Assembly: GCF_000010625.1 (NCBI RefSeq)
Contig: NC_010296.1
Coordinates: forward strand, 4,800,001 to 4,832,000
From: Microcystis aeruginosa NIES-843
GTDB lineage: Bacteria; Cyanobacteriota; Cyanobacteriia; Cyanobacteriales; Microcystaceae
Length of the DNA stretch: 32,000 nt
Reading direction: 5' to 3'
In this document: positions 5,303 to 16,127 of the stretch, in pieces
How positions within the stretch are numbered: position 1 is the stretch's first letter
Layout: every line of letters begins with the position of its first letter
Program-made: the position numbers and the translations under genes
The notes under the pieces: generated by a model
Told to the model about the DNA's origin: nothing
Seen by the model: the letters and a program-made list of their open reading frames with translations, nothing else
Database searches by the model: none

Positions 5303-5856
5303 GCAGTTTCTAGACGATTGCGGAGGAATTGGCGTAAAATAGTCAGTGCCGGAATCGGGATTTCGTGACCCATATTTAACTCGTGATATTCGACGTTAAC
5401 CCCCAAACCAAGCAGTAAATCTCTGGCTTGACGAGCAGCAGCGATAGGAACGACGGGATCCTGCTTACCATGAACAATTAAGACATTTTGTGGGCCTTGG
5501 GGATGGGGTTCACCGTGCAGATAACCACTCAAGGAACCCAATCCCGCCAAGGGTAAGGATAAACCCACATCCAGCGTCATCGCTCCCCCTTGGGAAAAAC
5601 CAGTCAAAAAAGTACGCTCTAGGGGAATGCCGGTGGTTGCTTCCAGGGAAATAATCCAATCGTGCAACTGTTGACGACTAGGGACTAAACCTTGATAATC
5701 GGAGGTTTCTAAAGCATACCAGGCGCGTCCCCCCGGCACTTGCGGATGATCGAAGGGAGCATTAGGAAACAAAAATTGACAATCAGCCAGATCCAACATC
5801 GATGCAAGGGGGGCCAGATCCATGGCATCTGCACCCCAACCGTGCAGCATGATCAC
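5299..5856 (-). CDS. Phospholipase/carboxylesterase-family alpha/beta hydrolase; the start codon is uncertain and the frame stays open upstream to 6000
   Basis: HGWGA oxyanion region, GFSQGG nucleophile elbow, and a C-terminal GHEI. A 4-nt ATGA overlap with rsmB is present. Conserved-looking N-terminal residues (LSFNPIVIPPSPENPARYLV) lie upstream of the GTG at 5856 with no ATG/GTG/TTG. Confidence 0.8.
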   Translation of the reverse strand: MIMLHGWGADAMDLAPLASMLDLADCQFLFPNAPFDHPQVPGGRAWYALETSDYQGLVPSRQQLHDWIISLEATTGIPLERTFLTGFSQGGAMTLDVGLSLPLAGLGSLSGYLHGEPHPQGPQNVLIVHGKQDPVVPIAAARQARDLLLGLGVNVEYHELNMGHEIPIPALTILRQFLRNRLETA

Positions 5857-6024
5857 TAGATAGCGAGCGGGATTTTCTGGGGAAGGGGGAATGACAATCG
5901 GGTTAAAAGACAGGGTTTTTTCCTCGCAATTCTCTTTTTTATCTATTCTATAGCGGTTTTCCCCGGGGTGAGATGGGTGTTGGGGGAGTCTTTTCAGTGA
6001 TCAGCTTCTGAAGGCAAAAGGCAC

Positions 6025-6570
6025 TCATGCAAAAGGCAGCTTTATTCTCCCAACTCCGGCGCTCCCAACTCCCATCACCCCACACCCCACACCCCACACC
6101 CTGTCCCCAGGAAAAACTTTTTCAGCATACCCTAAATAGCAACCAATAATTTCCCTTGTCTTTCTATCAATTAACCGCCAAATATAAACCTTTATCGTCT
6201 TAGAAAAAACCCAAGACCACATCTCATCACATTCTCTAAACAATTTACCTTTTGGTTTGTCCGAAACCTTTACTTGACGGGGAACAGCCGCCAGTTTATT
6301 GTTGACATAATTTTGTAACCATGACCAACTTACCCCTGTTACTCTCGCAATTCCTCGCAAGGAAATTCGTTCGAGCAAGAGTTGATCAATTAATTGTTTG
6401 GTTTCGTCAGAGACGGTTTTATTAGTGGGATTGATCACCAACGGTTGACCACATTCTTTACCTTGACGTTTGGGTTTTCCATTATGAATAGAACCATTCT
6501 TGATAGTATGGTGAGAACCACAACGCTTGACAGGGGAATAGAGGTGAAGGGGGTATTTTGTTCGGTGCTA
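6025..6570 (-). pseudogene. IS1-family transposase remnant, degenerate at the N-terminus and truncated after about 105 aa at the C-terminus
   Basis: A Zn-finger/HTH part (...KRCGSHHTIKNGSIHNGKPKRQGKECGQPLVINPTN... LRGIARVTGVSWSWLQNYV) is followed by DEMWSWV...IWRLIDRKTREIIGCYLG. Homology stops at about 6137, where the heptamer/tail repeat begins. An in-frame TAG lies upstream and there is no start codon for the Zn-finger part. Confidence 0.7.
6078..6137. repeat. Second copy of the heptamer (CCCCACA x3) plus CCCTGTCCCCAGGAAAAACTTTTTCAGCATACCCTAAAT element
   Basis: Hand alignment with 3489-3554. It forms the artificial C-terminus (GVGCGVMGVGS...) of the IS1 remnant ORF. Confidence 0.7.
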
Positions 6571-6756
6571 GACTGATATTTGAGTAAGCCAGACAGGAGC
6601 CAGAAAAAGATATTTATTATAAAAGTCATGCTCAAGCTAGAGGTTTAAAGACTGAGCGGGTTGCAATTATTTTTATTAATAAATATTTTACACAATTCAT
6701 ACCAGGTAAGCAAGAGGGCTACGCCACTACTACCGAATCATTACCACATCGGTTAC

Positions 6757-6896
6757 TTTTTTTCTGGTTCAGATGGCGAGAATTGTCAGGAAAAGTCAAC
6801 CCGTCACTCCCCCTCAAGGATTTTTATCAATTCCAGTTAATCGATAAAAGCAGTACAAGTGTATTTAATTAACTGTCCGACGTTTAATTTATCGTA
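6757..6896 (-). pseudogene. Decayed duplicate of the 3' end of the CPBP protease gene (homologous to 11475-11615)
   Basis: Hand alignment shows 8 mismatches in the first 77 aligned positions, then a small indel, then further matching (GTGTATTTAATTAACTG). The minus-strand translation contains stops. Confidence 0.7.
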
Positions 6897-7318
6897 CTAT
6901 TCCCCTGTTCTATTTCTCCCAGTCTTATTAAAATTTCTGATTGATCTGGGTGATTTCTAATTTTATTGATCTCTTCATAAGTAACCTCCATAATATCAAA
7001 TAATAACCATATTAATCTTTCTCTCTTATCCTCGTCACTAAAATTTCCCCCGATGATAGCGTTTAATCTTCCTTGATATTTCTCTTGCGTTTCTTTCAGT
7101 GGAAATCTACTGATTAATTCTTGGATGTATTCCTGAAGAGTAACTATTTGAAAACAATTAAATCTAGGCTTGATAGACATATATAGGCTGGTTTTCTTGT
7201 TTCCCAATTTCTTTTGGAAAGGCTCAATAATAGATGCTTGAAATTGTTTGTACAACCCTAATATCTTTTTGATCAGACTGGAGACAGGATTAATTGTCGA
7301 TAAGCTAAATCCACCCAT
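6884..7318 (-). CDS. Hypothetical protein (144 aa from the ATG); the in-frame upstream extension to 7462 encodes a TM-like helix but has no canonical start
   Basis: It is a long ORF in AT-rich DNA and I recognise no motif. The upstream in-frame sequence reads ...DNVYVGLIIALVFGFIISSLNPNLEQIDQV-MGGF. Confidence 0.45.
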   Translation of the reverse strand: MGGFSLSTINPVSSLIKKILGLYKQFQASIIEPFQKKLGNKKTSLYMSIKPRFNCFQIVTLQEYIQELISRFPLKETQEKYQGRLNAIIGGNFSDEDKRERLIWLLFDIMEVTYEEINKIRNHPDQSEILIRLGEIEQGNSTIN

Positions 7319-7603
7319 TACTTGGTCGATTTGTTCTAAATTAGGGTTTAAGGAACTAATAATAAAACCGAAGACCAGAGCAATGATTAAACCAACATAT
7401 ACATTATCCTCGATTGAGCTTAATAGAGAAAATATAAATTGAATAAGGCTCTTCGGTAATTGTTATGCAATGGACGGGGGTTATAAGGGATGGAACCCTT
7501 ATATAGAAAGGCATTTAGCGATTTTTGTCAATTGTTTTTTATCTAGAGCGAACTAATCAATTAAGTCTCTTGCCAGATAAGGATTTAGTCGATTTATGCC
7601 CCC

Positions 7604-7960
7604 CTATCGAACCATACCAAGTAACGAAGAACCTTGAATAAAAAGGTATAAGAGTATTGATATAAGAACTTTGAGAATTAATAACCTAACAAAAGTATTT
7701 AAAAAATCCTTTTTTAAATCGGGAAATAAATGACGAATCCTAAAAGCTGAGAAATAGCTACTTCCAGTTTCAACTGCTACTCCAATAATTATCGCAGTCA
7801 CGACAAAAGGCCACCGATCTTCTCCCAGAAGTTTCCGTATTTCACTAGAAAGGTCGGTGGCGGCAGCTGTCTGAGAATCTACCAAAAATAGGTAATGGGT
7901 GAATGAACTGAAAAAAGGAAACTTATCTAATTCCGTTAGAACCTGACTACAAAATACCAT
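7604..7960 (-). CDS. Hypothetical small membrane protein (118 aa, two predicted TM helices)
   Basis: Hydrophobic segments WPFVVTAIIIGVAVETGSSYF and FVRLLILKVLISILLYLFIQGSSLLGMV are present. Its ATG overlaps the end of the upstream ORF by 14 nt, which suggests translational coupling. Confidence 0.5.
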   Translation of the reverse strand: MVFCSQVLTELDKFPFFSSFTHYLFLVDSQTAAATDLSSEIRKLLGEDRWPFVVTAIIIGVAVETGSSYFSAFRIRHLFPDLKKDFLNTFVRLLILKVLISILLYLFIQGSSLLGMVR

Positions 7961-8243
7961 TTACCCTCAGCCAACGAGTTTTCCAAGTGGGAGTAAAGAT
8001 TTTGTAGCTTTCTTCTTCATTGACTTTGATATAGCCTTTGTCCGCTAGTTTTTCTAATTTATCTTGTAAGTCAGCTTCTCCAATTCTATCTGTTTCAATT
8101 TCAAAGCTCAAGGCAGTGGCAGCCCTAACTTTGAGTAAATCAGATAAAAGAGACTTCTCCGCGGAGGTTAAATAATTGTCAGACTTAGCTGAAGTCCCAG
8201 AATCACCCTTGTCTTTGGACTTAGAAGGAAATATGTCAAGCAT
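7947..8243 (-). CDS. Hypothetical 98-aa protein with a disordered Ser/Lys/Asp-rich N-terminus and a possible winged-helix-like C-terminus
   Basis: This is the first ORF of the minus-strand operon, transcribed divergently from the HTH-NTPase gene. The C-terminal segment LQDKLEKLADKGYIKVNEEESYKIF resembles a wHTH wing, but this is a weak call. Confidence 0.5.
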   Translation of the reverse strand: MLDIFPSKSKDKGDSGTSAKSDNYLTSAEKSLLSDLLKVRAATALSFEIETDRIGEADLQDKLEKLADKGYIKVNEEESYKIFTPTWKTRWLRVNGIL

Positions 8244-8296
8244 TCTGTTTTGTGTAGTTTATAAATACACTTCGACCAGTACATCTTGATCCTCAG

Positions 8297-8414
8297 TCAT
8301 GACTCTCTGAGTTCATGACTGAGATATGTCTGAGTTTTTTGCGATAAAAGCGTAAACGACCACTCTAATCTCTGATCTCATGACTGAGATATGTCTGAGT
8401 TTTTTGCGATAAAA
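8297..8414. promoter_or_regulatory. Divergent control region with a perfect 37-bp direct repeat (8313-8349 and 8378-8414) plus a shortened third copy (8297-8312)
   Basis: TCATGACTGAGATATGTCTGAGTTTTTTGCGATAAAA occurs twice, 65 bp apart start-to-start, and TCATGACTCTCTGAGT lies just upstream. The region sits between divergent genes and ends 29 nt before the ATG at 8443. Confidence 0.55.
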
Positions 8415-8442
8415 TAGAGATTGCGTCGATTGATGGAAGTTT

Positions 8443-9699
8443 ATGGGGCGATCGCTTAAAGTAAAATCAGAATATATCCCTAGAGTCAAACAAGCAGTTA
8501 AACTCAATGGTTACGCAAGTCAAGAGCTGCTTGCTGAGGATTTAGGATTCGCAAAATCGACTATTAGCCTTTTTCTTAACGGTAAATCGATTAGTAATCT
8601 CAATTTTTTTGAAATTTGTCAAAAATTAGCCCTTGATTATCGAGAAATCACTGACTGGGATGAGTTGGAGGAAACAGCTGCTGCCACGTCTGAGGATGAG
8701 GGAGAAAACCGGGCTGCGGATTTTTCCAAGTATATTGAACGTCCTCCAGTGGAACAGCTTTGTCTGGAGACGGTGAGTCAAGCAGGTTCATTATTGCGGA
8801 TTAAATCAGCCAAGGGGATGGGTAAAACCCTATTAGTCGATAGAATTTTGAGTCAAGTTGACAAAAGAGAGTATAAAACCGTCAGTTTCAGTTTTTTACA
8901 AGCAAGTAAAGGAATTCTCGGCGATTTAGACCGATTGCTCTCTTGGTTTGCTTTGATTATTTCCAAGAAATTAGGATTAGCAGCTCTCTTTCAGGAAAAA
9001 TGGCAAGAAGGATTAGGACTTTATAGCTGTACTGCCTATTTTGAAGACCATTTGCTCAAAAAGCTGGATAAACCCCTAATTTTAGTTTTAGAGGAGATAG
9101 ATAGTCTCTTTGCCTATACCAGCGTTGCCGACGATTTCCTTAGTTTATTTCGTCTTTGGCACGAGGAGGCAAAAAATAATAATACTTGGCAAAAGTTACA
9201 CTTAATTATCACCTATTCCACAGAAAATTATGTTCCTGCTGACCTGAATAAATCTCCTTTCAATGTAGGAACAGAAATCCTGTTACCTGATTTTACTCTA
9301 GAACAGGTCTTGACTCTAGCTAATAAATATCAGGCTAACTTGGGAAAAGATGAACTGCAAAGAATAATTAATCTTGTCGGGGGACATCCCTATTTAATCC
9401 AAAAGGCGATTTATGGGATTAGCCAAAAACAACTGTCTTTAGCAGATTTTTTAGAGACAGCAGCCACGGAAGCGGGGATTTATGGGGATCATTTGCGAGG
9501 ACATTTGCTAAACTTACAAGAACATCCAAACCTAGCAGCAGGAATGAAAAAGGTTGTAGAGTCCTCTTCTCCCGTTGATTTAGGTGCAGCAATTAATTGG
9601 CAACTTCATAGTTTAGGATTAGTAACCTTTGTGCAGAATGCTGTTCAACCCCGTTATCCACTATACAGCGACTATTTTAGGTATCGCCTATCCTCCTAA
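8443..9699 (+). CDS. XRE-type HTH fused to an AAA-like (AAA_35/PF14516-type, STAND-like) NTPase
   Basis: HTH segment: SQELLAEDLGFAKSTISLFLNGK. An acidic linker follows. Other motifs are Walker A SAKGMGKTLL, Walker B LILVLEEIDSLF, SPFNVG, and a GGHPYLIQ helix. The family assignment is from memory of the YI-R...(Q)MGK(S/T) pattern. Confidence 0.75.
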   Translation: MGRSLKVKSEYIPRVKQAVKLNGYASQELLAEDLGFAKSTISLFLNGKSISNLNFFEICQKLALDYREITDWDELEETAAATSEDEGENRAADFSKYIERPPVEQLCLETVSQAGSLLRIKSAKGMGKTLLVDRILSQVDKREYKTVSFSFLQASKGILGDLDRLLSWFALIISKKLGLAALFQEKWQEGLGLYSCTAYFEDHLLKKLDKPLILVLEEIDSLFAYTSVADDFLSLFRLWHEEAKNNNTWQKLHLIITYSTENYVPADLNKSPFNVGTEILLPDFTLEQVLTLANKYQANLGKDELQRIINLVGGHPYLIQKAIYGISQKQLSLADFLETAATEAGIYGDHLRGHLLNLQEHPNLAAGMKKVVESSSPVDLGAAINWQLHSLGLVTFVQNAVQPRYPLYSDYFRYRLSS

Positions 9700-9875
9700 A
9701 ATCCAATATATTGAGTTAAACTGTTGTACATCTAAATCTAATATTCGTTTTCACCTGTTCCCCGTTCCCTCATCGAATCCAGAACTTTAAATGCGGACTA
9801 GCTTAGGCACAGATAACCTTTGATTAAATTATTCATCGAACTTAACCAATCAGACAAATTGCTAATTTTAATGCT

Positions 9876-10997
9876 ATGGCGACCAATTTTTATCATATTG
9901 GAGGCAGCGTCCCCCTAAATGCACCTAGTTATATCAAGCGGGAAGCAGATGATATATTTTATGACTATCTAAAAAATGGACAGTATTGCTATGTGTTAAA
10001 TTCCCGTCAGATGGGAAAATCAAGTTTGTGGGTACAGACACAAAAACGACTGCAAGAGGATAATATTGATTGTGCTACCATTGATTTGAGTGGTATAGGA
10101 AAAAACATCTCCGAAGATATTTGGTATCGAGTATTATTTGAGCAACTGGTTAAACGATTTGATCTTTCTATTCGGGGAAAAGAGCAAACTTGGTGGGATG
10201 AACGAGCCTATAAATCAGCTATTAATCGTCTTGATCAATTTGTTGAGGACATTCTCTTAAAGGAGGTATCCCGACCTATTGTTATCTGTTTTGATGAAAT
10301 TGATAGCGTTCTGAGTTTAAAATTTTCCACAGATGATTTCTTTGCTTGGCTGCGTAGCTGTCATGAAAAACGTCCTCATAATAGGGATTACCAACGTCTA
10401 ACCTTTTGTATGTTGGGGGTAGCGGCAGTTTATAACTTTATTCTAGATAATAATCGTAGTCCTTTTAATATTGGTCAAGATATTCGATTATCTGGATTTA
10501 CTATAAGGGATGCCAGAAAACTTGCCGAGGGATTGCAGGACAAAGTTCCCAATCCACAAGGGGTTTTAGAGGAGGTTATAGACTGGACAGGTGGACAACC
10601 ATTTTTAACTCAAAAAATTTGTCGTTTAATCTCCACATCTCGCCCTGAATTTGGCAAGGAATCCCCAGCAAACCCGATTAATGTCGGCGATTTTATCCAG
10701 TCGCAAGTAATTAGTAACTGGGTATCTCAAGATAGTCCAGAACACCTAAAAACTATTCGGAATCGTTTATTAAATAAGCGTGTCACGGGTAGAAGAATGC
10801 TGAAGCTTTACCTAGAAATTTTAAGAAATGGTGAAATTACCGATGATGGTAGTCTTGATCAAATAGAATTACGCTTAACGGGATTGGTAGTTGAAGACCG
10901 ACAAAAGTTAAAAGTTTATAATAAGATTTATAGAAATGTTTTTAATGAAACTTGGGTGACAACCGATGAACGACCTGGCCACAATTTTTGGAATTGA
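9876..10997 (+). CDS. Stand-alone AAA-like (AAA_35-type, STAND-like) NTPase, a paralogue of the upstream gene
   Basis: Motifs YIKREADD...LNSRQMGKSSL (Walker A), VICFDEIDSV (Walker B), SPFNIG and GGQPFLTQ are present. The C-terminal LRLTGLVVEDRQKLKVYNKIYRNVFNETWV is typical of this family. It aligns motif-for-motif with 8443-9699. Confidence 0.8.
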   Translation: MATNFYHIGGSVPLNAPSYIKREADDIFYDYLKNGQYCYVLNSRQMGKSSLWVQTQKRLQEDNIDCATIDLSGIGKNISEDIWYRVLFEQLVKRFDLSIRGKEQTWWDERAYKSAINRLDQFVEDILLKEVSRPIVICFDEIDSVLSLKFSTDDFFAWLRSCHEKRPHNRDYQRLTFCMLGVAAVYNFILDNNRSPFNIGQDIRLSGFTIRDARKLAEGLQDKVPNPQGVLEEVIDWTGGQPFLTQKICRLISTSRPEFGKESPANPINVGDFIQSQVISNWVSQDSPEHLKTIRNRLLNKRVTGRRMLKLYLEILRNGEITDDGSLDQIELRLTGLVVEDRQKLKVYNKIYRNVFNETWVTTDERPGHNFWN

Positions 10998-11401
10998 CTG
11001 TATTGATTATTGGGGGTTAAAATTTCCAAGAAAAATCCTGTACCACCAGAGAAACTATTCCCTAGTTCTGATGTATTACCAAACATTAAACCGAAACCAA
11101 ACATCCAATAAGCCAAGGCAGAAACACAGAAGACAATTAGGTTTTTAGCTAAGACATTAGTGGCGTTATTAGTACGACAAAAACCCGTTTCCAGCATGGC
11201 AAAACCCGCATTCATAAAGAATACTAACGAGCCGGCTATTAACATCCAGAGATTAGCAACTAAATCCAGAGTAGAATTATTTAAATCTTGTGCTGTGACT
11301 TTGCCTACACCGATCAACAGCATGACAATAAGAGAGAAACAAAAAGATAGGATATTACGCAAACGCGGGCGATATTCTAGAAAAGATAATAATCGATTCA
11401 T
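10928..11401 (-). pseudogene. amt: Ammonium transporter (Amt) gene truncated after about 125 codons; only about 11025-11401 is Amt-like
   Basis: LWMLIAGSLVFFMNAGFAMLETGFCRTNNATNVLAKNLIV...WMFGFGLMFG...GFFL is a typical Amt N-terminus. The remainder of the ORF runs into the 3' end of the opposing NTPase gene and is unrelated sequence. Confidence 0.8.
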
Positions 11402-11453
11402 CGGCTATAACTCTCATGGGCAATTTCCCCTTTATAGTAATTGATTTAATCCC

Positions 11454-12284
11454 CTATCGTTCACTCAAAACTGCTTTTTTTCTGATCCAGATAGCGAGAA
11501 TTGTCAGGAAAAGTAAACCCATCACTCCCGCTAAAGGATTTTTATCGATTCCAGTTAACCAATCGGGAACAGTACCAGTGTATTTAATTAACTGACCCAC
11601 ATTTAATATATAGTATGCCCAGATTAAACCCGCGTGCAGACCGATGCTTTTACCCAAATTACCACCACAGGCGCGTTTTGCCCAACCGAGAATCAATCCT
11701 AGCAAGACTAAGGCAGGAAATTGGGGAAAAGTGCGGATAATTTCGGCTAAAGGTTTAATAAAGTGAGCAAGAGCGAAAATTAAGGCACTAATCACTAGAG
11801 CGATAGCGGGACGATAATCCTTTTCTAATTCTCCCAGTAACCAGCCCCGAAATAGCAATTCTTCGGCGAAACCCACCGCTAAAGCGACTAAAAACCCCTC
11901 CAGGATGATTTTGCCGATTTGGGGATTTGCGGGTAAGAAATTTAACCAACCTAGGAACGCTTGGGACAGAAAAAGCGAGAAAGTGAAAAATAGACCGATC
12001 GCTAACCCGTTAATTAACTCGATCGGCGTTTTTCTTCGCCAAATCAACCCATAATCGGCTAATCCCTCATCGCCATAAATTGTCCGTCCCCACCAATGGG
12101 ATAACCCCAAAAATTCCAGATAGAGAACAGAAAGGGTCAAAATTGAGACAAGATTAGCATTAGTGGCAAAAAAGTGATAGAGGGGAAGTGCGATCGGCAA
12201 CCAGAGAAAAAGTAAGAGCAAAATAAAAATTCCCAGTCGCAGGGGGACTGGGTAAGTGGCAATTACCCGCAATCTTTTATTCAT
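11454..12284 (-). CDS. CPBP-family (CAAX/Abi) intramembrane glutamic endopeptidase
   Basis: It is polytopic and hydrophobic, with motifs FAEELLFRGWL and LIFALAHF. Its ATG overlaps the clpS stop (ATGAATAA). Confidence 0.85.
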   Translation of the reverse strand: MNKRLRVIATYPVPLRLGIFILLLLFLWLPIALPLYHFFATNANLVSILTLSVLYLEFLGLSHWWGRTIYGDEGLADYGLIWRRKTPIELINGLAIGLFFTFSLFLSQAFLGWLNFLPANPQIGKIILEGFLVALAVGFAEELLFRGWLLGELEKDYRPAIALVISALIFALAHFIKPLAEIIRTFPQFPALVLLGLILGWAKRACGGNLGKSIGLHAGLIWAYYILNVGQLIKYTGTVPDWLTGIDKNPLAGVMGLLFLTILAIWIRKKAVLSER

Positions 12285-12564
12285 CGGGTTCGATGCTGCT
12301 GGTTAAACCTTTATTTTTCAAGGTTTCACAGTAAAATTCCGCGTGTTCTTGGATGCAGGTAATCACCAAGGCCGTACCATTAGTGTGCGCTTCCATCATG
12401 ATATCAACTGCTTGGGGTTGCGTCATACCGGCGATCGTTTGCATTAAACTCTGAACCACATACTCCATCGAGTTAAAGTCGTCATTGTGGAGTAAAACGC
12501 GATAACGCGGCGCTGGTTTACGGATTGTCGCTGTGGAACGCTTTTCGATCACTTCTGTGGACAC
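12277..12564 (-). CDS. clpS: ATP-dependent Clp protease adaptor ClpS
   Basis: The sequence RYRVLLHNDDFNSMEYVVQSLMQ...QAVDIMMEAHTNGTALV is canonical ClpS. Confidence 0.92.
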   Translation of the reverse strand: MSTEVIEKRSTATIRKPAPRYRVLLHNDDFNSMEYVVQSLMQTIAGMTQPQAVDIMMEAHTNGTALVITCIQEHAEFYCETLKNKGLTSSIEPDE

Positions 12565-12764
12565 CGTTTCTCTCCTTTGAATCTATATCGCAAATACAGG
12601 TCAATTACTTAATGATCATAATCAAAATTTCCAGATTGAGCTAGGCTTTTTCTGTGATCCGTGAGGGGGTTGGGTGTTGGGGAGTGGGGGACAGCCAAAG
12701 GAATGACATTTCTAGATAGATAGATCATAATTGAATTAATTGGCTAATTTAAGCTTATTTTTCC

Positions 12765-13265
12765 ATGGCTACTGACGAATTACAAAACCTCGAAGACAAT
12801 ATTCAACGCTTAAAACAACAATTAGCGGGAATCCGCGATGCGTGGACAGGTGCGCGTCCAGAAGATAAAGTTCTTTTGCAGCAACGCATAAACGATAAGC
12901 GCATAGAAATTAAAGAATTGGAACGAGAAAAATGGGATTTAATCGCCAGCGAGAGTCAAGAAGCATCTTTTCCTGATGCCGAGGTAATGGTAGCAGAAAT
13001 TGTCACAGAATTGACGGCAATTACCAAAGAACCACCCTCAGAACTTGCTTCTGCACAAATCTTAGAATTATTAAATCAAATTCTGGCTAAACTCAATCAA
13101 CCAGAGCGATCGGCAGCAGCCAAATTAAAAGCGGCCATATCTACTATACCCCCTTTTGTTTCCCTGACCTACGAAGCGGAATTAGATACTGAGTCAACTT
13201 TTAAGCGTTATTTTCCCACATTTAATCGTGCGATCGCAGGAGTGAAAAATCGTCTAAAAAAGTAA
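12765..13265 (+). CDS. Uncharacterised 166-aa coiled-coil/helical protein, candidate N-terminal module of the downstream STAND NTPase
   Basis: The N-terminus is heptad-rich (LQNLEDNIQRLKQQLAGI...RINDKRIEIKELEREKW), followed by an acidic linker and a helical C-terminal half. The ORF ends ...CTA AAA AAG TAA, 23 nt before the NB-ARC ORF. Confidence 0.6.
   Translation: MATDELQNLEDNIQRLKQQLAGIRDAWTGARPEDKVLLQQRINDKRIEIKELEREKWDLIASESQEASFPDAEVMVAEIVTELTAITKEPPSELASAQILELLNQILAKLNQPERSAAAKLKAAISTIPPFVSLTYEAELDTESTFKRYFPTFNRAIAGVKNRLKK
13256..13262 (+). promoter_or_regulatory. Candidate -1 ribosomal frameshift heptamer A_AAA_AAG, or alternatively an A6 indel hot spot
   Basis: The zero-frame codons are cta AAA AAG taa. 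The -1 frame (aaa aaa gta agt att ccc tct atc cct agt aat GTG) has no stop and is the frame of ORF 13289-15442. An SD-like AGGAG lies at 13238-13242. Confidence 0.35.
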
Positions 13266-13288
13266 GTATTCCCTCTATCCCTAGTAAT

Positions 13289-15442
13289 GTGGGCAAAAGT
13301 ACGGTTAATTTTGTCGGGAGGGAAGATGAGTTAACCTTAATTCATCAGAAATTGCAAACAGAACAAGGGGTGATTGTTTGCGCGGTGGAAGGGTTAGGGG
13401 GAATAGGAAAAACCGCTTTAGCTTTGGAATATGCGAAACGATACCAACAGGAATACGCGGCACAATATTGGTTATCCTTGCGACTATCGGGTTTAGCAGA
13501 AGAAATAGTTAAATTAGCCGCTCCCTATCTATCTTTACCAGAAATATTGAAAAAAGAATCTTTAGAAAAACAAGTGTACTGGTATTGGCAAAATTGGCTA
13601 CCTCAGCAGGGAAAATTATTATTAATTCTCGATGATGTCCCCAATATCGACAGAATTCCCGATCGAATGTTACCAAAAGATTCTAGGATTAAGATATTAG
13701 TCACCACTAGGGAAAGGTGTCTTAGTACGGAATTTGAGTCTATAGCTTTAGATGTTTTACCCTTAGATAAATGTGTGGAATTATTAACCAAAATTGTTGG
13801 TACTGCTAAAGTTGAGCAAGAAAAAGCTTTAGTAGAACAGATCTGTCACGAAATTTTAGGACGCTTAACCTTAGCAGTGGAGTTAGTGGGGGAATATTTA
13901 GCGAAAAATCGTCATTTAAAGTTTAGCCATTTACGCGATAAATTAAATTTAGCTCATACTGCTTTAACCAAGGAAAGAAACCACAGAGATTATGGACATT
14001 TAGGGGTAGCAGCCGCAATTAAAATCAGTTGGGATGATTTAAGTTCTGCTGTTCAAAAAGTGGCAATACTGTTGAGTTTATTCGCACCAGTGGCTATTGC
14101 TTGGACGTTGCTAGAAGATACGGCAAAATCCACGGAAATTACCGAAAGCGAACTAGAAGAAGCGCGGGGACAATTGGATAATTCTCATCTGATGCAACCC
14201 GTGGATGAGGACTATTCTTTTTATCGGATTCATCCCCTCGTGAGAGAATTTTTTCAACAGCAATTACAGGAAATTCCTAAGATAAATTCTCTTTATCGAT
14301 GCGCTTTTGTGGAAACTTTGTTAACCATTGCCGAAAATATCCCGCAAACCCCCACAAGGGAGATTATTGCAGCAGTAACTCCCGCAATTCCCCATCTGCA
14401 ACTTGTCAGTCAAACCATGTTAGATGATATTCCCAACCTGGAAGATAATTTAATTCAGGTGTTTCTTGGGGTAGCTTTGTTTTATAAGGGACAGGGAGAA
14501 TATGATTTAGCAGCAGTTCCCTTAACAAAATGTTGTGAAGAAATCCAATCTCGCTTAGGAGAAAACAATCTCTATTTTGCTAGCAGTCTCAATAATTTAG
14601 CACTATTATACAAACCCCAAGGCAGATACGCAGAAGCGGAACCCTTGTATAAGCGCTCCCTTTCTCTGATAAAACAGCTATTAGGAGAAAACCATCCTAG
14701 TGTTGCTACCAGTGTCAATAATTTAGCACTCTTATATCAATGCCAAGGCAGATACACAGAAGCAGAATCGTTGTATAAGCACTCCCTTTCTCTAAGGGAA
14801 CAACTATTAGGAGAAAACCATCTCGATGTTGCACAAAGTCTCAATAATTTAGTAGTGCTATACGAATACCAAGGCAGATACGCAGAAGCGGAACCCTTAT
14901 GTAAGAGATGCCTTTCTCTGATAGAACAGCTATTAGGAGAAAACAATCTCTATTTTGCTACCATTCTCAATAATTTAGCGGAATTATACCGCTTCCAAGG
15001 CAGATACGCAGAAGCGGAACCCTTGTCTAAGAGATGCCTTTCTCTGAAAGAACAGCTATTAGGAGAAAACCATCCCGATGTTGCACAAAGTCTCAATAAT
15101 TTAGCTTTTTTGTACCAATGCCAAGGCAAATACGCAGAAGCGGAACTGTTGTATAAGCGCTCCCTTTCTCTGCGGGAACAGCGATTAGGAGAAAACCATC
15201 CTAGTGTTGCTAAAAGTCTCAATAATTTAGCGGTATTATACGAATCCCAAGGCAGATACGCAGAAGCGGAACCGTTGTATGTGAGAGCTATTGCTATTTA
15301 TCAAGAAAGATTAGGAGAAAATCATCCCCATACCCAAAAAGTAAGGCAAAATTTTATGATTCTGTTGTCGCGATTATCCGATGAAGAATTACAGCAAAGA
15401 TTCCCCGATGAGATAGTTAATCTCTTAAAAAGTATCAGGTAG
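13289..15442 (+). CDS. NB-ARC (STAND, NLR-like) NTPase with C-terminal TPR array and no N-terminal effector domain
   Basis: It has a GTG start, with the P-loop beginning at about residue 33 (GLGGIGKTALA). Other motifs are Walker B LLLILDDV, KILVTTRE, a degenerate GLPL (LGRLTLAV), and IHPLV at the MHD position. Seven 42-aa kinesin-light-chain-type TPR units follow. Confidence 0.9.
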   Translation: MGKSTVNFVGREDELTLIHQKLQTEQGVIVCAVEGLGGIGKTALALEYAKRYQQEYAAQYWLSLRLSGLAEEIVKLAAPYLSLPEILKKESLEKQVYWYWQNWLPQQGKLLLILDDVPNIDRIPDRMLPKDSRIKILVTTRERCLSTEFESIALDVLPLDKCVELLTKIVGTAKVEQEKALVEQICHEILGRLTLAVELVGEYLAKNRHLKFSHLRDKLNLAHTALTKERNHRDYGHLGVAAAIKISWDDLSSAVQKVAILLSLFAPVAIAWTLLEDTAKSTEITESELEEARGQLDNSHLMQPVDEDYSFYRIHPLVREFFQQQLQEIPKINSLYRCAFVETLLTIAENIPQTPTREIIAAVTPAIPHLQLVSQTMLDDIPNLEDNLIQVFLGVALFYKGQGEYDLAAVPLTKCCEEIQSRLGENNLYFASSLNNLALLYKPQGRYAEAEPLYKRSLSLIKQLLGENHPSVATSVNNLALLYQCQGRYTEAESLYKHSLSLREQLLGENHLDVAQSLNNLVVLYEYQGRYAEAEPLCKRCLSLIEQLLGENNLYFATILNNLAELYRFQGRYAEAEPLSKRCLSLKEQLLGENHPDVAQSLNNLAFLYQCQGKYAEAELLYKRSLSLREQRLGENHPSVAKSLNNLAVLYESQGRYAEAEPLYVRAIAIYQERLGENHPHTQKVRQNFMILLSRLSDEELQQRFPDEIVNLLKSIR
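14591..15346 (+). repeat. Six tandem 126-bp units encoding near-identical 42-aa TPR repeats, with a degenerate seventh at 14465-14590
   Basis: AATAATTTAG recurs exactly every 126 nt (14591, 14717, 14843, 14969, 15095, 15221). Long identical nucleotide blocks such as GGCAGATACGCAGAAGCGGAACCC recur. Confidence 0.92.
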
Positions 15443-15756
15443 GTAAAAAAATATATATCTCCTTCCCCGGTTTTACTGGGGAGCGCTCAGTTTCCGGGAG
15501 ATCCTAACCAAGCTTCTCAATCTTCTAGTTCAAAAAAATCGAATAAAGCTGCTGCCTTCCTTTAAATACGCGCAAAAAAGTCCCGTACAACTGGCAAAAT
15601 TTTGTCTTTGCTCTGTATCTTTTATTTGCTTGACTTTTTGAGCAACTTGTGCTAATAAATCTGGGAGCGAGTCTAAAAATAGGGTGTAGGCAACGGTATG
15701 CGATCGCCAATACCGCATCAGATTATACTTCATATTTATGAGAAAAGCAGTATGAA

Positions 15757-15816
15757 GACAGGCACTGATGCAAAAGGGAGAATAAATAATCAGTTTTTAA
15801 TAACCGGATTTAGTAT
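15757..15816. mobile_element. Partial copy (right half) of the ATACTAAATCC/GGATTTAGTAT MITE family
   Basis: GACAGGCACTGATGCAAAAGGGAGAATAAATAATCAGTTTTTAATAACCGGATTTAGTAT aligns with 21208-21273 and with the reverse complement of 1251-1300. Confidence 0.55.
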
Positions 15817-15835
15817 GACCCTAGCAGCCTAAAAA

Positions 15836-15871
15836 TAGCAAAAAACCCGGTGGGAAAATCTCCCCACCGGG
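15836..15871 (-). terminator. Rho-independent terminator downstream of rpmE
   Basis: A 9-bp GC-rich stem CCCGGTGGG (15846-15854) pairs with CCCACCGGG (15863-15871) around an 8-nt loop. On the minus strand it is followed by TTTTTGCTATTTTT. Confidence 0.65.
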
Positions 15872-15893
15872 TCAAAAAGGCAAAAGTAAAGAA

Positions 15894-16127
15894 TTATTTC
15901 TGATCGGCCTTTTTGCTTGACTTATCGCCCATTTTGTACTTACGCAAGAAGCGATCGACCCGGCCCTCCGTATCGATCATCTTCTGGGTTCCCGTATAAA
16001 AAGGATGATTACCCGACCAAACCTCCACATGAATTTCTGGTTTTGTCGAACCCACCGTCATCACCAGTTCACCATTACAGATCACCTTAGCTTCCGGATA
16101 CCAAGTAGGATGAATTTTTTTCGGCAT
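15894..16127 (-). CDS. rpmE: 50S ribosomal protein L31
   Basis: The sequence MPKKIHPTWYPEAKVICNGE...HPFYTG is canonical L31. Confidence 0.95.
   Translation of the reverse strand: MPKKIHPTWYPEAKVICNGELVMTVGSTKPEIHVEVWSGNHPFYTGTQKMIDTEGRVDRFLRKYKMGDKSSKKADQK

Follow-up and report, generated by a model that had tools for sequence, protein, structure and literature searches.

A 32-kb window (the whole stretch of DNA analysed here) from the genome of Microcystis aeruginosa NIES-843 (GCF_000010625.1, NC_010296.1) contains two adjacent AAA_35-type NTPase genes, NT1 and NT2. They face a small gene and a split membrane-protein gene across a divergent intergenic region, and are followed by a remnant of the ammonium transporter gene amt (Table 1).

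Table 1 Features of the NT1–NT2 locus in the NIES-843 window.
Feature	Position	Strand	Size or extent	Evidence
Strain-specific left flank (transposase remnant, ORF 6025-6441-, and unique sequence)	6025..6745			Pfam, blastn
Membrane gene, 3′ part	6884..7446	-	codons ~107-293	tblastn with P0056: 96% identity over residues 107-293
MITE-like insertion splitting the membrane gene	7447..7634		188 bp	
Membrane gene, 5′ part	7635..7960	-	codons 1 to ~109	tblastn with intact P0056, blastn collinearity
Small protein	7947..8243	-	98 aa	cluster look-up
Divergent intergenic control region between small gene and NT1	8244..8442			
Inverted repeat	8292-8302 / 8313-8323			
CTGA(G/C)TT-type boxes, first set	8307-8313, 8319-8325, 8330-8336	+		
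CTGA(G/C)TT-type boxes, second set	8384-8390, 8395-8401	+		
NT1	8443..9699	+	418 aa, intact	Pfam AAA_35 (PF14516) E=8.6e-121
NT1 XRE-type HTH	8482-8646	+	residues ~14-68	HTH_3 E=0.002
NT1 acidic disordered linker		+	residues 74-90	AF2 model
NT1 AAA_35 STAND-like NOD (nucleotide-binding oligomerisation module)		+	residues 93-413	
NT2, truncated AAA_35 NOD	9876..10997	+	373 aa	Pfam AAA_35 E=4.7e-38
Deletion junction, truncated NT2 fused to amt N-terminal remnant	10966/10967			blastn against Microcystis loci
amt (ammonium transporter) N-terminal remnant	10967..11401	-	~145 codons	Pfam Ammonium_transp E=7.3e-18

An initial reading of the sequence alone had proposed two adjacent paralogous AAA_35 NTPases, and the Pfam matches to both bear this out. 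NT1 carries a GMGKT Walker A motif, a LVLEEID Walker B motif and GGHPYL. Walker A and B are kept in both NT1-type and NT2-type partners, the NT2-type versions being QMGK[ST]S in 72/72 proteins and DEID in at least 71/73. NT1 and NT2 are AAA_35 (STAND-like) NTPase paralogues of ancient divergence and share 25% identity over 236 aa. The XRE-type HTH that had been assigned to NT1 only is likewise upheld: the HTH_3 match of the window protein is sub-threshold by the Pfam cut-off, close homologues have precomputed PF01381/PF12844 matches, and the NT1 family profile matches HipB (E=0.003). The AF2 model (pLDDT 86) places an N-terminal five-helix bundle ahead of the disordered linker, and its best PDB matches (Foldseek) are PAB2304, Avs3/Avs4, ORC/Cdc6, plant NLRs and MalT. 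The full-length NT1 architecture is found at 44-72% identity in many cyanobacterial genera, across orders.

The NIES-843 NT2 is truncated. Its homology to full-length NT2 stops at 10966, codon 364 (tblastn, blastn), and from there the frame runs through 9 codons of antisense amt sequence to its stop. In other genomes the complete NT2 protein has 685-752 aa; the extra part comprises a second lid/winged-helix repeat, one TM helix and, at the C-terminus, a Cys-rich domain of ~125 aa. In Microcystis, Crocosphaera and Prochloron, this TM and Cys-rich C-terminal domain is probably extracytoplasmic. NT2 therefore appears to lack a sensor domain here because it is truncated; the earlier claim that there is none holds for the NIES-843 protein and fails for full-length NT2. 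The junction lacks 2061 bp present in locus L003 and 4755 bp present in L001 (blastn), and the comparison with L003 shows that NT2 and amt each lost the 3′ end to one deletion. What is left of amt covers positions 1-75 only of the Ammonium_transp profile; other strains have a complete amt of 479-505 aa in convergent orientation to NT2.

Three small ORFs had been described on the opposite strand, but these are really two genes: in other Microcystis strains the 118-aa and 144-aa ORFs are joined in a single intact gene for a 293-aa membrane protein. The annotated 118-aa ORF (7604-7960-) reads on into the MITE, and the annotated 144-aa ORF (6884-7318-) lies inside the 3′ part of the gene. The MITE has imperfect terminal inverted repeats (GGCTCTTCGGTAATTG / CAAGTAACGAAGAACC) and a 7-bp target-site duplication, TGAATAA, at 7440-7446 and 7635-7641. 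Three more copies at ~90% identity occupy unrelated places in the Microcystis genomes L099, L101 and L102. The intact membrane protein has two strong TM helices (residues 93-111 and 121-139), and its structure model has a pLDDT of 40. The 98-aa ORF was read correctly, including the 14-nt overlap of its 3′ end with the membrane gene. Its product is 83-102 aa long in other strains, with a variable N-terminus and a conserved C-terminal F-x-P-[ST]-W-K-T-R-W motif. The core is probably a winged helix, consistent with a TrmB wHTH match in 4/7 members of the family that is sub-threshold (E=0.004-0.008). The small and membrane ORFs are intact in most Microcystis strains.

The NIES-843 region, taken at first for a five-gene unit, thus reads as a four-gene locus that is partly broken, with two of its genes damaged and only NT1 and the small protein intact. 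Without the sensor half of NT2, and with a MITE inside the membrane gene, the complete system cannot function in this strain.

The same reading had cast the segment as a horizontally acquired island that interrupts native genes. The compositional observations behind it stand: the module (6746-10966) has a GC content of 37.1% vs 46.3% for the window outside 6001-16000, and a HIP1 site is present within it at 8448-8455. A recent AT-rich five-gene accessory island, inserted into native genes at amt-CPBP, would fit this composition, the left-flank transposase remnant (weak HTH_Tnp_ISL3 and DDE_Tnp_IS1 matches in Pfam) and the distribution among Microcystis strains, where, as anticipated, some genomes have the locus and others do not, with independent decay. 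However, the window is collinear with other Microcystis strains from 6746 to at least 13277, through amt, CPBP and ClpS (blastn), and the right-hand edge of the proposed island is no boundary. Moreover, amt was cut by deletion rather than insertion, the genes number four, and no integrase, tRNA or flanking repeat was found at the proposed edges. Orthologous NT1-NT2-amt order is also found in Crocosphaera, Prochloron and the metagenomic relative L093, and across cyanobacteria an NT2-type gene lies beside an NT1-type gene in 70/80 loci (49 tandem, 21 divergent), the other 10 being mostly contig-end cuts or gene fragments. By these comparisons the NT1-NT2 pair does not look like a recent import, and a recent island, which the synteny and junction data already contradict, is very improbable. 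Filamentous species have several paralogous NT1-NT2 pairs, as judged from repeated organism names among the loci.

Relatives of the two NTPases differ at opposite ends. NT2 C-termini carry WD40 repeats in 23/66 cases, and others carry TPR, CHAT, PG_binding_1, GAF-PAS with or without a cyclase, PBP_like_2, Peripla_BP_6, COP23, the lectin-like 3keto-disac_hyd or Pkinase+WD40. Among these sensors, the solute-binding, GAF-PAS and cyclase types are usual in everyday environmental signalling. The N-terminal domain of NT1-type proteins is in most cases an XRE HTH, as in NIES-843; in some relatives the HTH is replaced by Trypsin_2+TIR_2 (L078, L085), Patatin (L081) or CHAT (L088), all counted above Pfam cut-offs. 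Output swaps on NT1 combined with variable NT2 C-termini form a pattern similar to that of paired immune receptors, and suggest a division of labour in which the NT1 type would contribute an N-terminal output domain and the NT2 type a variable C-terminal sensor. Because effectors and sensors are swapped family-wide, an immune or abortive-infection role seems the most likely one for the NT1-NT2 family. The earlier suggestion that a DNA-binding STAND-like NTPase and a partner NTPase could plausibly serve in conflict gains from both the structural matches and these swaps. None of the components is a known defence gene, as had been stated: none of the four proteins is matched by a PADLOC or NCBIfam model, and a literature search found no published description of the NT1-NT2 pair.

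The divergent intergenic region holds two sets of CTGA(G/C)TT-type boxes, the second of which is the product of a duplication specific to this strain (46-nt direct repeat 8304-8349 / 8369-8414). These boxes (8307-8401) form the sole such cluster in the window, and no consensus sigma-70 promoter was found in the intergenic region. In different cyanobacterial orders, HTH-type NT1 genes are preceded by CTGA(G/C)TT direct repeats with an 11-bp period, the last box being a median 59 nt away from the start codon. Chains of at least three boxes at 10-12-bp steps occur in 22/71 HTH-type NT1 upstream regions vs 0.03% of 20,967 control windows; this strict metric catches about one third of the loci, the Nostocales variant being recognised by eye. 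No box arrays were found upstream of non-HTH NT1-type genes, a small control group (n=6). The boxed promoter is common to NT1 and the small/membrane pair in all 13 Microcystis loci of the compared set (L001-L012, L016) and in L093, and on two truncated contigs, L089 and L112, the small gene likewise has box arrays upstream.

We favour, with moderate confidence, the view that the NIES-843 locus is a strain-decayed four-gene locus with a cyanobacterial two-NTPase core and a conflict-type role; more broadly, it is probably a conflict or signalling module that is degenerate in this strain. In the mechanism we propose, the C-terminal domain of NT2 would perceive a cue, leading to NTP-dependent hetero-oligomerisation of the NT1 and NT2 NODs. 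The arrayed NT1 HTHs would bind the 11-bp-phased repeats of the divergent promoter and shift transcription of the NT1-NT2 operon and the opposite operon. In Microcystis the latter encodes the small winged-helix-like protein and the 293-aa membrane protein, and this pair, quickly diversifying and with a link to phage, would be a candidate effector or its regulator.

The same architecture could instead serve non-immune signal transduction, as a split MalT/AfsR-like STAND transcription regulator in which NT2 responds to a cue from the environment or the envelope, possibly nitrogen or ammonium given the adjacent conserved amt, and NT1 switches on a small regulon through direct-repeat operators. 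Direct repeats of 11-bp period near promoters resemble the activator sites of SARP/MalT-type regulators, a likeness that the box arrays share. The sensors PBP_like_2, Peripla_BP_6, GAF-PAS and adenylate/guanylate cyclase, the conservation of NT1 between orders, and the convergent NT2/amt order kept in Microcystis, Crocosphaera, Prochloron and L093 also point this way. So does a paralogue, an Hpt (phosphorelay) protein that has the same C-terminal TM and Cys-rich module at 74% identity and in some strains takes the place of the NTPase cassette. AAA_35 is in addition fused to sigma-70 factors (PMC11119718). We nevertheless consider a purely regulatory role unlikely, as NLR/Avs-like immunity is marked by domains such as the trypsin-TIR, patatin and CHAT of the NT1-type NOD and the CHAT, WD40 and TPR of NT2; the locus is also dispensable, with repeated decay inside one genus, and filamentous species carry multiple paralogous pairs. 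Furthermore, dN/dS is 0.45 for NT1 and 0.69 for NT2, indicating weaker constraint than on the flanking housekeeping genes (ClpS 0, CPBP 0.15, amt 0.27).

Within the favoured conflict-type reading, the assignment of the small and membrane proteins as effector meets a competing account: they may form an autonomous cassette, toxin-antitoxin-like or a phage-derived exclusion/moron element, a possibility we entertain tentatively. This alternative touches the effector sub-claim only and fits either reading of the NTPases. The pair is nearly restricted to Microcystis, and the expectation that the small ORFs are conserved beside the NTPases holds there and in L093 and largely fails elsewhere. Since it is absent from the other NT1-NT2 loci (67 non-Microcystis loci lack it) and occurs without any AAA_35 gene in L096, another cyanobacterium, the pair may be a mere neighbour. 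In L096 it sits amid PIN, HicA and DUF6883/DUF4926 toxin-antitoxin genes and a CRISPR-cas array, and in L090 it adjoins a sigma factor. Its 14-nt overlap resembles that of a coupled pair, and dN/dS is 1.54 for the small gene and 1.0-1.14 for the membrane gene, values that near 1 are compatible with relaxed constraint too. Against autonomy stand the box-bearing promoter shared with NT1 and the lack of a match to known TA or PADLOC families. In addition, PF20712 (CyanoTRADDas_TM), another small membrane protein, holds the same divergent position beside NT1 in 7 loci of other lineages, and TM proteins are enriched among NT1 divergent neighbours (26/43 vs 324/1048). A phage link is consistent with the cassette: P0366, 57% identical to the small protein, is encoded on a phage-like contig without the membrane partner, next to a small terminase, a tail protein, Ant, an Hdf-like antirestriction protein and lysozyme. 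This contig is HIP1-rich.

All seven proteins checked by cluster look-up have identical entries in NIES-843 (BAG05061-05064 for those of the locus), and the ORFs listed for this range by the sequence-only reading agree with mechanical ORF calls. Its core observation of two adjacent AAA_35 paralogues stands: the HTH-bearing NTPase (NT1) and its partner (NT2) are both members of Pfam AAA_35 (PF14516), both exceed the 27-bit gathering score, and they are ~25% identical over 236 residues. NT1 contains Walker A GMGKT and Walker B LVLEEID, with G127, K128, and D220 invariant or nearly so in 73 sequences, and a pattern count finds the NT2 motifs QMGKSS and FDEID in no fewer than 71 of 73 sequences. 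Both proteins therefore carry the Walker A and Walker B (hhhhD[DE]) signature of STAND NTPases, and the motifs GGHPYL (NT1) and GGQPFL (NT2) are conserved.

Searched by sequence, the PDB gave no relative for the AAA_35 domain of NT1 or of NT2. The NT1 model (AF2, 73 sequences; pLDDT 86, pTM 0.77) consists of an XRE-like five-helix bundle (helices 9-21, 27-34, 38-45, 52-61, and 66-69), a disordered acidic linker, and a nucleotide-binding oligomerisation module (NOD). The best Foldseek matches to this model are PAB2304, Avs3, Avs4, archaeal ORC/Cdc6, SSO1545, plant NLR resistosomes, and MalT, with a probability of 1.0 for Avs3/4, NLRs, MalT, ORC/Cdc6, and PAB2304 and TM-scores of just 0.4-0.6. 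The modelled NOD has the tripartite STAND/ORC-like organisation (NBD, helical domain with GxP motif, winged helix), and the fold matches together with the GG(H/Q)P motif place AAA_35 among the STAND/ORC-like NTPases. At the N terminus, the HTH_3 score of the window NT1 (18.6 bits) is under the 23-bit cut-off; close homologues have precomputed PF01381/PF12844 matches and the NT1 family profile matches HipB at E=0.003, which with the five-helix model identifies an XRE/Cro-C1 HTH. PADLOC-DB v2 gave no significant match (best PDC-S27, E=0.0033, for NT1; E of at least 0.008 for the small and membrane ORFs), and neither did NCBIfam for the locus proteins.

Features of the AAA_35 locus and of the loci compared with it (window coordinates unless a locus handle, L, precedes them)
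Feature	Position	Strand	Description
NT1	8443-9699	+	418 aa; Pfam AAA_35 E=8.6e-121, 403.2 bits; weak HTH_3 match at residues 26-68
NT2	9876-10997	+	373 aa; Pfam AAA_35 E=4.7e-38, 131.3 bits
HIP1 site	8448-8455		
CTGA(G/C)TT boxes	8307, 8319, 8330 and 8384, 8395		
188-bp insertion	7447-7634		imperfect terminal inverted repeats; 7-bp duplication TGAATAA
MITE copies outside the window	L099:1302-1488; L101:9538-9724; L102:1427-1613		188-bp family, 7-bp TSD
Transposase N-terminal remnant	6025-6441		weak ISL3-HTH and IS1 matches; marks rearrangement breakpoint left of module
NT1-type N-termini replacing HTH	L078, L085		Trypsin_2+TIR_2, above Pfam cut-offs
NT1-type N-terminus replacing HTH	L081		Patatin, above Pfam cut-off
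NT1-type N-terminus replacing HTH	L088		CHAT, above Pfam cut-off

In NIES-843 the locus is degenerate: the sensor half of NT2 is missing, and the gene for the membrane protein is split. The 144-aa ORF falls in a cluster whose normal member length is 293 aa (cluster look-up), and the 118-aa ORF resembles the N terminus of the same 293-aa membrane protein, so that the five genes first counted included two halves of one. By tblastn the intact protein (P0056) aligns in two pieces, residues 1-109 at 7960-7634 and residues 107-293 at 7447-6887, and in other strains 6746-7446 and 7635-8334 directly adjoin each other (blastn). The insertion that splits the gene is a MITE, whose copies (~90% identical, n=3) occupy unrelated sites in other Microcystis genomes. 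Intact NT2, found in strains with an unbroken gene, is 685-752 aa long (AAA_35 score of the full-length protein 122.7 bits); its extra part comprises a second lid/winged-helix copy, 31% identical to residues 230-368, followed by one TM helix and a ~125-aa C-terminal domain with conserved cysteines. The Crocosphaera orthologue has an architecture identical to that of full-length Microcystis NT2, and the truncation found in the window recurs in two other Microcystis contexts (L098 and L101). The reported lack of a sensor domain thus reflects a truncated gene. NT2 homology ends at 10966, amt homology resumes at 10967 (blastn), and 2061 bp spanning the 3′ ends of the convergent NT2 and amt are absent relative to locus L003; amt was therefore cut by a deletion and not by island insertion, which removes the claim that the segment interrupts native genes. 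Rfam gave no match within 5800-12000.

Immediately past the NOD, most NT2-type proteins have a conserved helical motif, LRPY.EA..AW......SRLLRG..L.EA..WA....LS..DY.FL..S (NT2 residues ~365-430 in most lineages), a version of which lies in the C-terminal tail of a 416-aa Microcystis NT2 variant.

The locus had also been read as an accessory island. Its low GC (37.1% for the module at 6746-10966 against 46.3% for the window outside 6001-16000) and its HIP1 site are confirmed by composition and motif position, and deviant composition is expected of acquired DNA. No integrase, tRNA, or direct-repeat boundaries and no insertion into an intact site were found: on the right, collinearity with other strains continues, and the left shows only the transposase remnant. 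Collinearity with other Microcystis strains starts at 6746, leftward of which lie strain-specific sequence and that remnant. Nor is the module missing from related lineages at the same site, since Crocosphaera (L013, L014), Prochloron (L015), and a metagenomic relative (L093) have the NT1-NT2-amt order too, with the convergent placement of amt and NT2 that Microcystis shows. This synteny across genera argues for vertical inheritance with loss and against recent import; together with the collinear right side and the deletion in amt, it rules against island status. The esterase and RsmB genes, left of the remnant in the window, lie at different distances from ClpS-CPBP in two other loci (L105, L107), which shows that deletions have struck this site repeatedly.

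Among ten distinct Microcystis contexts around an identical ClpS gene, the module is present in five (L098, L100, L101, L104, L107) and absent from five; of the latter, three have a 636-aa Hpt protein after amt, and two have larger deletions. The C-terminal 306 residues of the Hpt protein are common to NT2 at 74% identity. This protein (632-636 aa; L001:3378-5276, also in L099, L102, and L103) has an N-terminal Hpt domain of the CheA-like phosphotransfer kind, and is convergent to amt; some strains have it next to the NTPase cassette, others instead of the cassette. The part that it has in common with NT2 is the lid-repeat, TM, and Cys-rich module, which looks like a portable sensor.

NT1-like proteins that keep the full-length architecture (44-72% identity) occur in Crocosphaera, Prochloron, Lusitaniella, Coleofasciculus, Moorena, Nostoc, Calothrix, Rivularia, and others. 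In a census of 80 loci from species-representative genomes, an NT2-type gene adjoins the NT1-type gene in 70 (49 tandem downstream, 21 divergent upstream), and the remaining 10 are mostly cut off at contig ends or contain gene fragments. Each NT2 matches Microcystis NT2 at E ~1e-78 to 1e-220 and NT1 only at ~1e-7 to 1e-18; judged by these comparisons, NT1-type and NT2-type NODs are distinct clades. C-terminal sensor or repeat domains are absent from both window proteins, never occur on NT1, and are carried by NT2 orthologues and paralogues. WD40 repeats form the NT2 C terminus in 23 of 66 cases, and the others include TPR, CHAT, PG_binding_1, GAF-PAS with or without cyclase, PBP_like_2, Peripla_BP_6, COP23, a lectin-like 3keto-disac_hyd domain, and Pkinase+WD40. 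On NT1-type proteins it is the N-terminal HTH that is exchanged, for protease, TIR, patatin, or CHAT domains, and an NT2-type gene follows the NT1-type gene in each of these loci. NT1-type NODs score 410-484 bits against AAA_35, above NT1's own score. One further locus (L082) has an apparent HTH and TIR combination, with both matches below cut-off.

With swappable N-terminal outputs on one NOD and swappable C-terminal sensors on its paired NOD, the predicted domain architecture follows NLR/Avs-type immunity, here divided between two proteins. A non-immune signalling role for the AAA_35 pair is a serious rival, since NT2 types carry solute-binding, GAF-PAS, and cyclase sensors, amt is a conserved neighbour, and the Hpt protein is a paralogue.

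Five Coleofasciculus loci (L019, L020, L024, L027, L078) contain a ~206-267-aa gene with a weak HSDR_N (restriction-endonuclease-fold) match between NT1 and NT2, and the first four have an IU_nuc_hydro nucleoside hydrolase gene next to them upstream, in divergent orientation. Both genes may be lineage-specific effectors.

Upstream of HTH-type NT1 genes of many orders lie three to five direct repeats with the core CTGA(G/C)TT and a period of 10-12 bp. Scored as CTGASTT with at most one mismatch (the stricter TGA[GC]T[TA] undercounts arrays), chains of at least three boxes occur in 22 of 71 upstream regions as against 0.03% of the control windows (n=20,967, drawn from these loci); for chains of at least two, the figures are 35 of 71 and 0.57%. 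The end of the last box precedes the start codon by a median of 59 nt. Nostocales loci have a visibly related variant, GAGTAYRTATCGACTT, that the CTGASTT metric misses. The arrays are absent upstream of the six NT1-type genes without an HTH (n=6), and the 32-kb window holds no second box cluster. A sigma-70 consensus scan found no promoter in the spacer between NT1 and the small gene, and overall the sites were not in excess. From phylogenetic footprinting we infer that the boxes are the putative operator of the NT1 HTH; their phasing by one helical turn would suit the predicted binding of an oligomer. Two of the window's boxes, 8384 and 8395, derive from a strain-specific duplication (46-nt repeat). 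The number of box repeats in this spacer (8304-8414) varies by strain, NIES-843 having a 65-bp duplication, and in one locus (L009:9326-10000) the spacer is expanded to ~670 bp with many more boxes.

All 13 Microcystis loci of the search set (L001-L012, L016) have the small and membrane genes, which are lacking at the other 67 NT1-NT2 loci. An exhaustive profile search with the membrane protein returned a handful of distant homologues only, each again preceded, where contigs allowed, by a small-protein homologue. One (L093) repeats the entire amt-NT2-NT1/small-membrane layout, and in another (L096) the small/membrane pair stands alone among PIN, HicA, and DUF6883/DUF4926 genes, adjoining cas genes. 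In seven other lineages the position divergently upstream of HTH-type NT1, which the small/membrane operon holds in Microcystis, is filled by a small protein of PF20712 (cyanobacterial TRADD-N-associated 2-TM), which is without sequence similarity to either Microcystis protein and absent from the window. TM proteins make up 26 of 43 divergent neighbours of NT1, twice their share among background ORFs (324 of 1048).

The two genes diverge rapidly. Across 12 Microcystis alleles (NG86, ratio of means), dN/dS is 1.54 for the small gene and 1.04 and 1.14 for the halves of the membrane gene, compared with 0.45 for NT1, 0.69 for NT2, and 0.27, 0.15, and 0 for the controls amt, CPBP, and ClpS. Both ORFs are full-length in most strains, and this persistence together with the dN/dS values favours diversifying selection over simple decay. 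Two strong TM helices are predicted in the membrane protein, whose AF2 model at 293 aa is unusable (pLDDT 39.8). Compared with a type II-like toxin-antitoxin pair, the genes overlap by 14 nt; 293 aa is large for a toxin, wHTH support for the small protein is confined to sub-threshold TrmB winged-helix matches in four of seven members, and neither protein matches a toxin or antitoxin family in Pfam, PADLOC, or NCBIfam. The small/membrane operon is a candidate effector of the NTPase pair and may equally be an autonomous neighbour.

The small protein has a C-terminal motif, GY[IV]K...F.P[ST]WKTRW (profile positions 69-104). A likeness to the repeated core motif of the linker domains in the phycobilisome linker CpcN (8imn; summed E=2.8e-7, single repeats i-E of at least 0.75) was rejected as probably a chance match of compositional or short-motif origin. 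Many Microcystis loci have a 195-aa gene after the membrane gene; this was also rejected as a member of the unit, because the 210-aa gene that L093 has there is not related to it.

An 82-aa protein, P0366, 57% identical to the small protein, is encoded directly upstream of the small terminase on HIP1-rich phage-like contigs (L108, L109). Nearby genes encode a tail/host-specificity protein, an anti-repressor Ant, an Hdf-like antirestriction protein, a methyltransferase, an HNH nuclease, an RNA ligase, and a lysozyme, and no membrane-protein partner lies beside P0366 on these contigs. No match for L108 (nucleotide) or P0366 was found in INPHARED, and neither P0366 nor the membrane family was found in IMG/VR. 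The contigs (L108:1-11103 and L109) come from lake metagenomes and have 39% GC and ~1 HIP1 site per kb; their tail protein is a distant relative (23%) of one from Microcystis phage Mwe-JY26.

We then compared the pair with known systems. The nearest published idea is the nSTAND2 two-gene counter-invader system, a purely computational prediction (Kaur, Iyer, Burroughs, Aravind 2021, eLife; PMC8195603): an operon of two STAND NTPases that are expected to assemble as a hetero-multimer, in which variable effector modules occur on one partner and one partner has eroded NTP-binding motifs. The AAA_35 pair, likewise a computational prediction, also consists of two adjacent STAND-NTPase genes with variable effectors on one and is predicted to hetero-oligomerise. 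Unlike the inactive or eroded nSTAND2 partner, both AAA_35 proteins keep Walker A and B, and NT2 carries sensors. The nSTAND2 profile (PF20702) hits NT2 only, and below its 24-bit cut-off (11.7-12.9 bits; E=0.066 in the window, 0.16 full-length), and NT1 not at all; the GT4 and HEPN effectors of nSTAND2 were not seen in AAA_35 loci, where effectors are HTH, TIR, trypsin, patatin, and CHAT. With Avs3/Avs4 (Gao et al. 2022; PDB 8dgc, 8dgf; ranks 2-9 of the PDB matches to the NT1 model) the pair has a STAND-type NOD in common, and at the AAA_35 family level it resembles Avs/NLR-like proteins in having N-terminal TIR, trypsin, patatin, or CHAT, a central NTPase, and variable TPR or WD40 sensors. 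It differs in placing effector and sensor on two paralogous NOD proteins instead of one polypeptide, in an AAA_35 NOD without a PADLOC match, and in a commonest output that is an XRE HTH and not an enzyme. We found no publication describing an AAA_35 (PF14516) NTPase pair; in the papers found, the domain is mentioned only as an accessory to some cyanobacterial sigma factors (PMC11119718).

Among archaeal ATPase_2 proteins, PAB2304 (2qen) ranks first (E=3e-9, TM 0.52-0.60) and SSO1545 (2fna) sixth; both differ from NT1 in sequence (13-16% identity) and are without an HTH or a paired partner. MalT (PDB 8bob), among the NT1 fold matches, and SARP/AfsR proteins resemble NT1 in coupling a NOD to a DNA-binding domain. 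Operators of SARP/MalT regulators are direct repeats close to the promoter, spaced by about one helical turn. The phased direct repeats enriched upstream of NT1, co-occurring with the HTH, are candidate operators of a similar kind. Unlike MalT/SARP, NT1 has an N-terminal HTH of the XRE and not the LuxR/OmpR type, its sensor is on a second NOD protein, and versions with enzymatic effectors exist; DNA-binding domain, NOD, and sensor are split over NT1 and NT2 and do not form one polypeptide. Plant paired NLRs (RGA4/RGA5, RRS1/RPS4) are adjacent, often head-to-head paralogues that divide sensor and executor roles. To these the AAA_35 pair stands in analogy only, given another NOD clade, bacterial hosts, a transcriptional output, and an interaction that is only proposed.

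The best-supported reading has two layers, an NLR-like AAA_35 sensor/executor pair and a Microcystis-specific small/membrane operon. In the first, the executor at this locus would be a transcription factor acting on the phased direct repeats; in the second, the fast-diversifying, phage-linked operon would share the regulated promoter in Microcystis. The proposal of an undescribed conflict system is thus borne out partly and in spirit, leaving aside the island, the five genes, the missing sensor, and the interrupted neighbours. Taken as one joint claim, which we advance tentatively and hold to be rather doubtful, the pair would be a cyanobacterial counterpart of plant paired NLRs, with sensor and executor AAA_35 proteins side by side and an output that swaps between TIR, trypsin, patatin, or CHAT and an XRE HTH. 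The HTH version would convert infection sensing into transcription from the 11-bp-phased repeats and thereby into a membrane effector (in Microcystis the 293-aa protein, checked by its small partner), which cyanophages would counter with a small-protein homologue.

If this is true, cyanobacteria would have in the AAA_35 pairs a large and so far uncharacterised class of NLR-like two-component systems, with separate paralogous NTPases as sensor and executor and transcription as a common output. Paired-receptor logic is otherwise known mainly from plants; the bacterial STAND/Avs picture would gain it, along with a defined cis-element for testing. Microcystis is a toxic genus that forms blooms and faces heavy pressure from phages, and the patchy presence of the module, its repeated decay, and the fast diversification of the small and membrane genes, with a homologue of the small one on a phage-like contig, point to an active, strain-variable host-phage interface. 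The message of the window is more modest: NIES-843 has a half-dead copy of the locus and is therefore the wrong strain for a phenotype search.

Shortly beyond ClpS, at 12765-15442, the window contains a second STAND-type pair, in which a gene for a 166-aa coiled-coil protein precedes one for a 717-aa NB-ARC + TPR protein. The dN/dS of the 166-aa gene is 0.61, from four alleles only. In other Microcystis, a ParE/RelB toxin-antitoxin is inserted between the two genes, or the NB-ARC protein is called at 314 aa.
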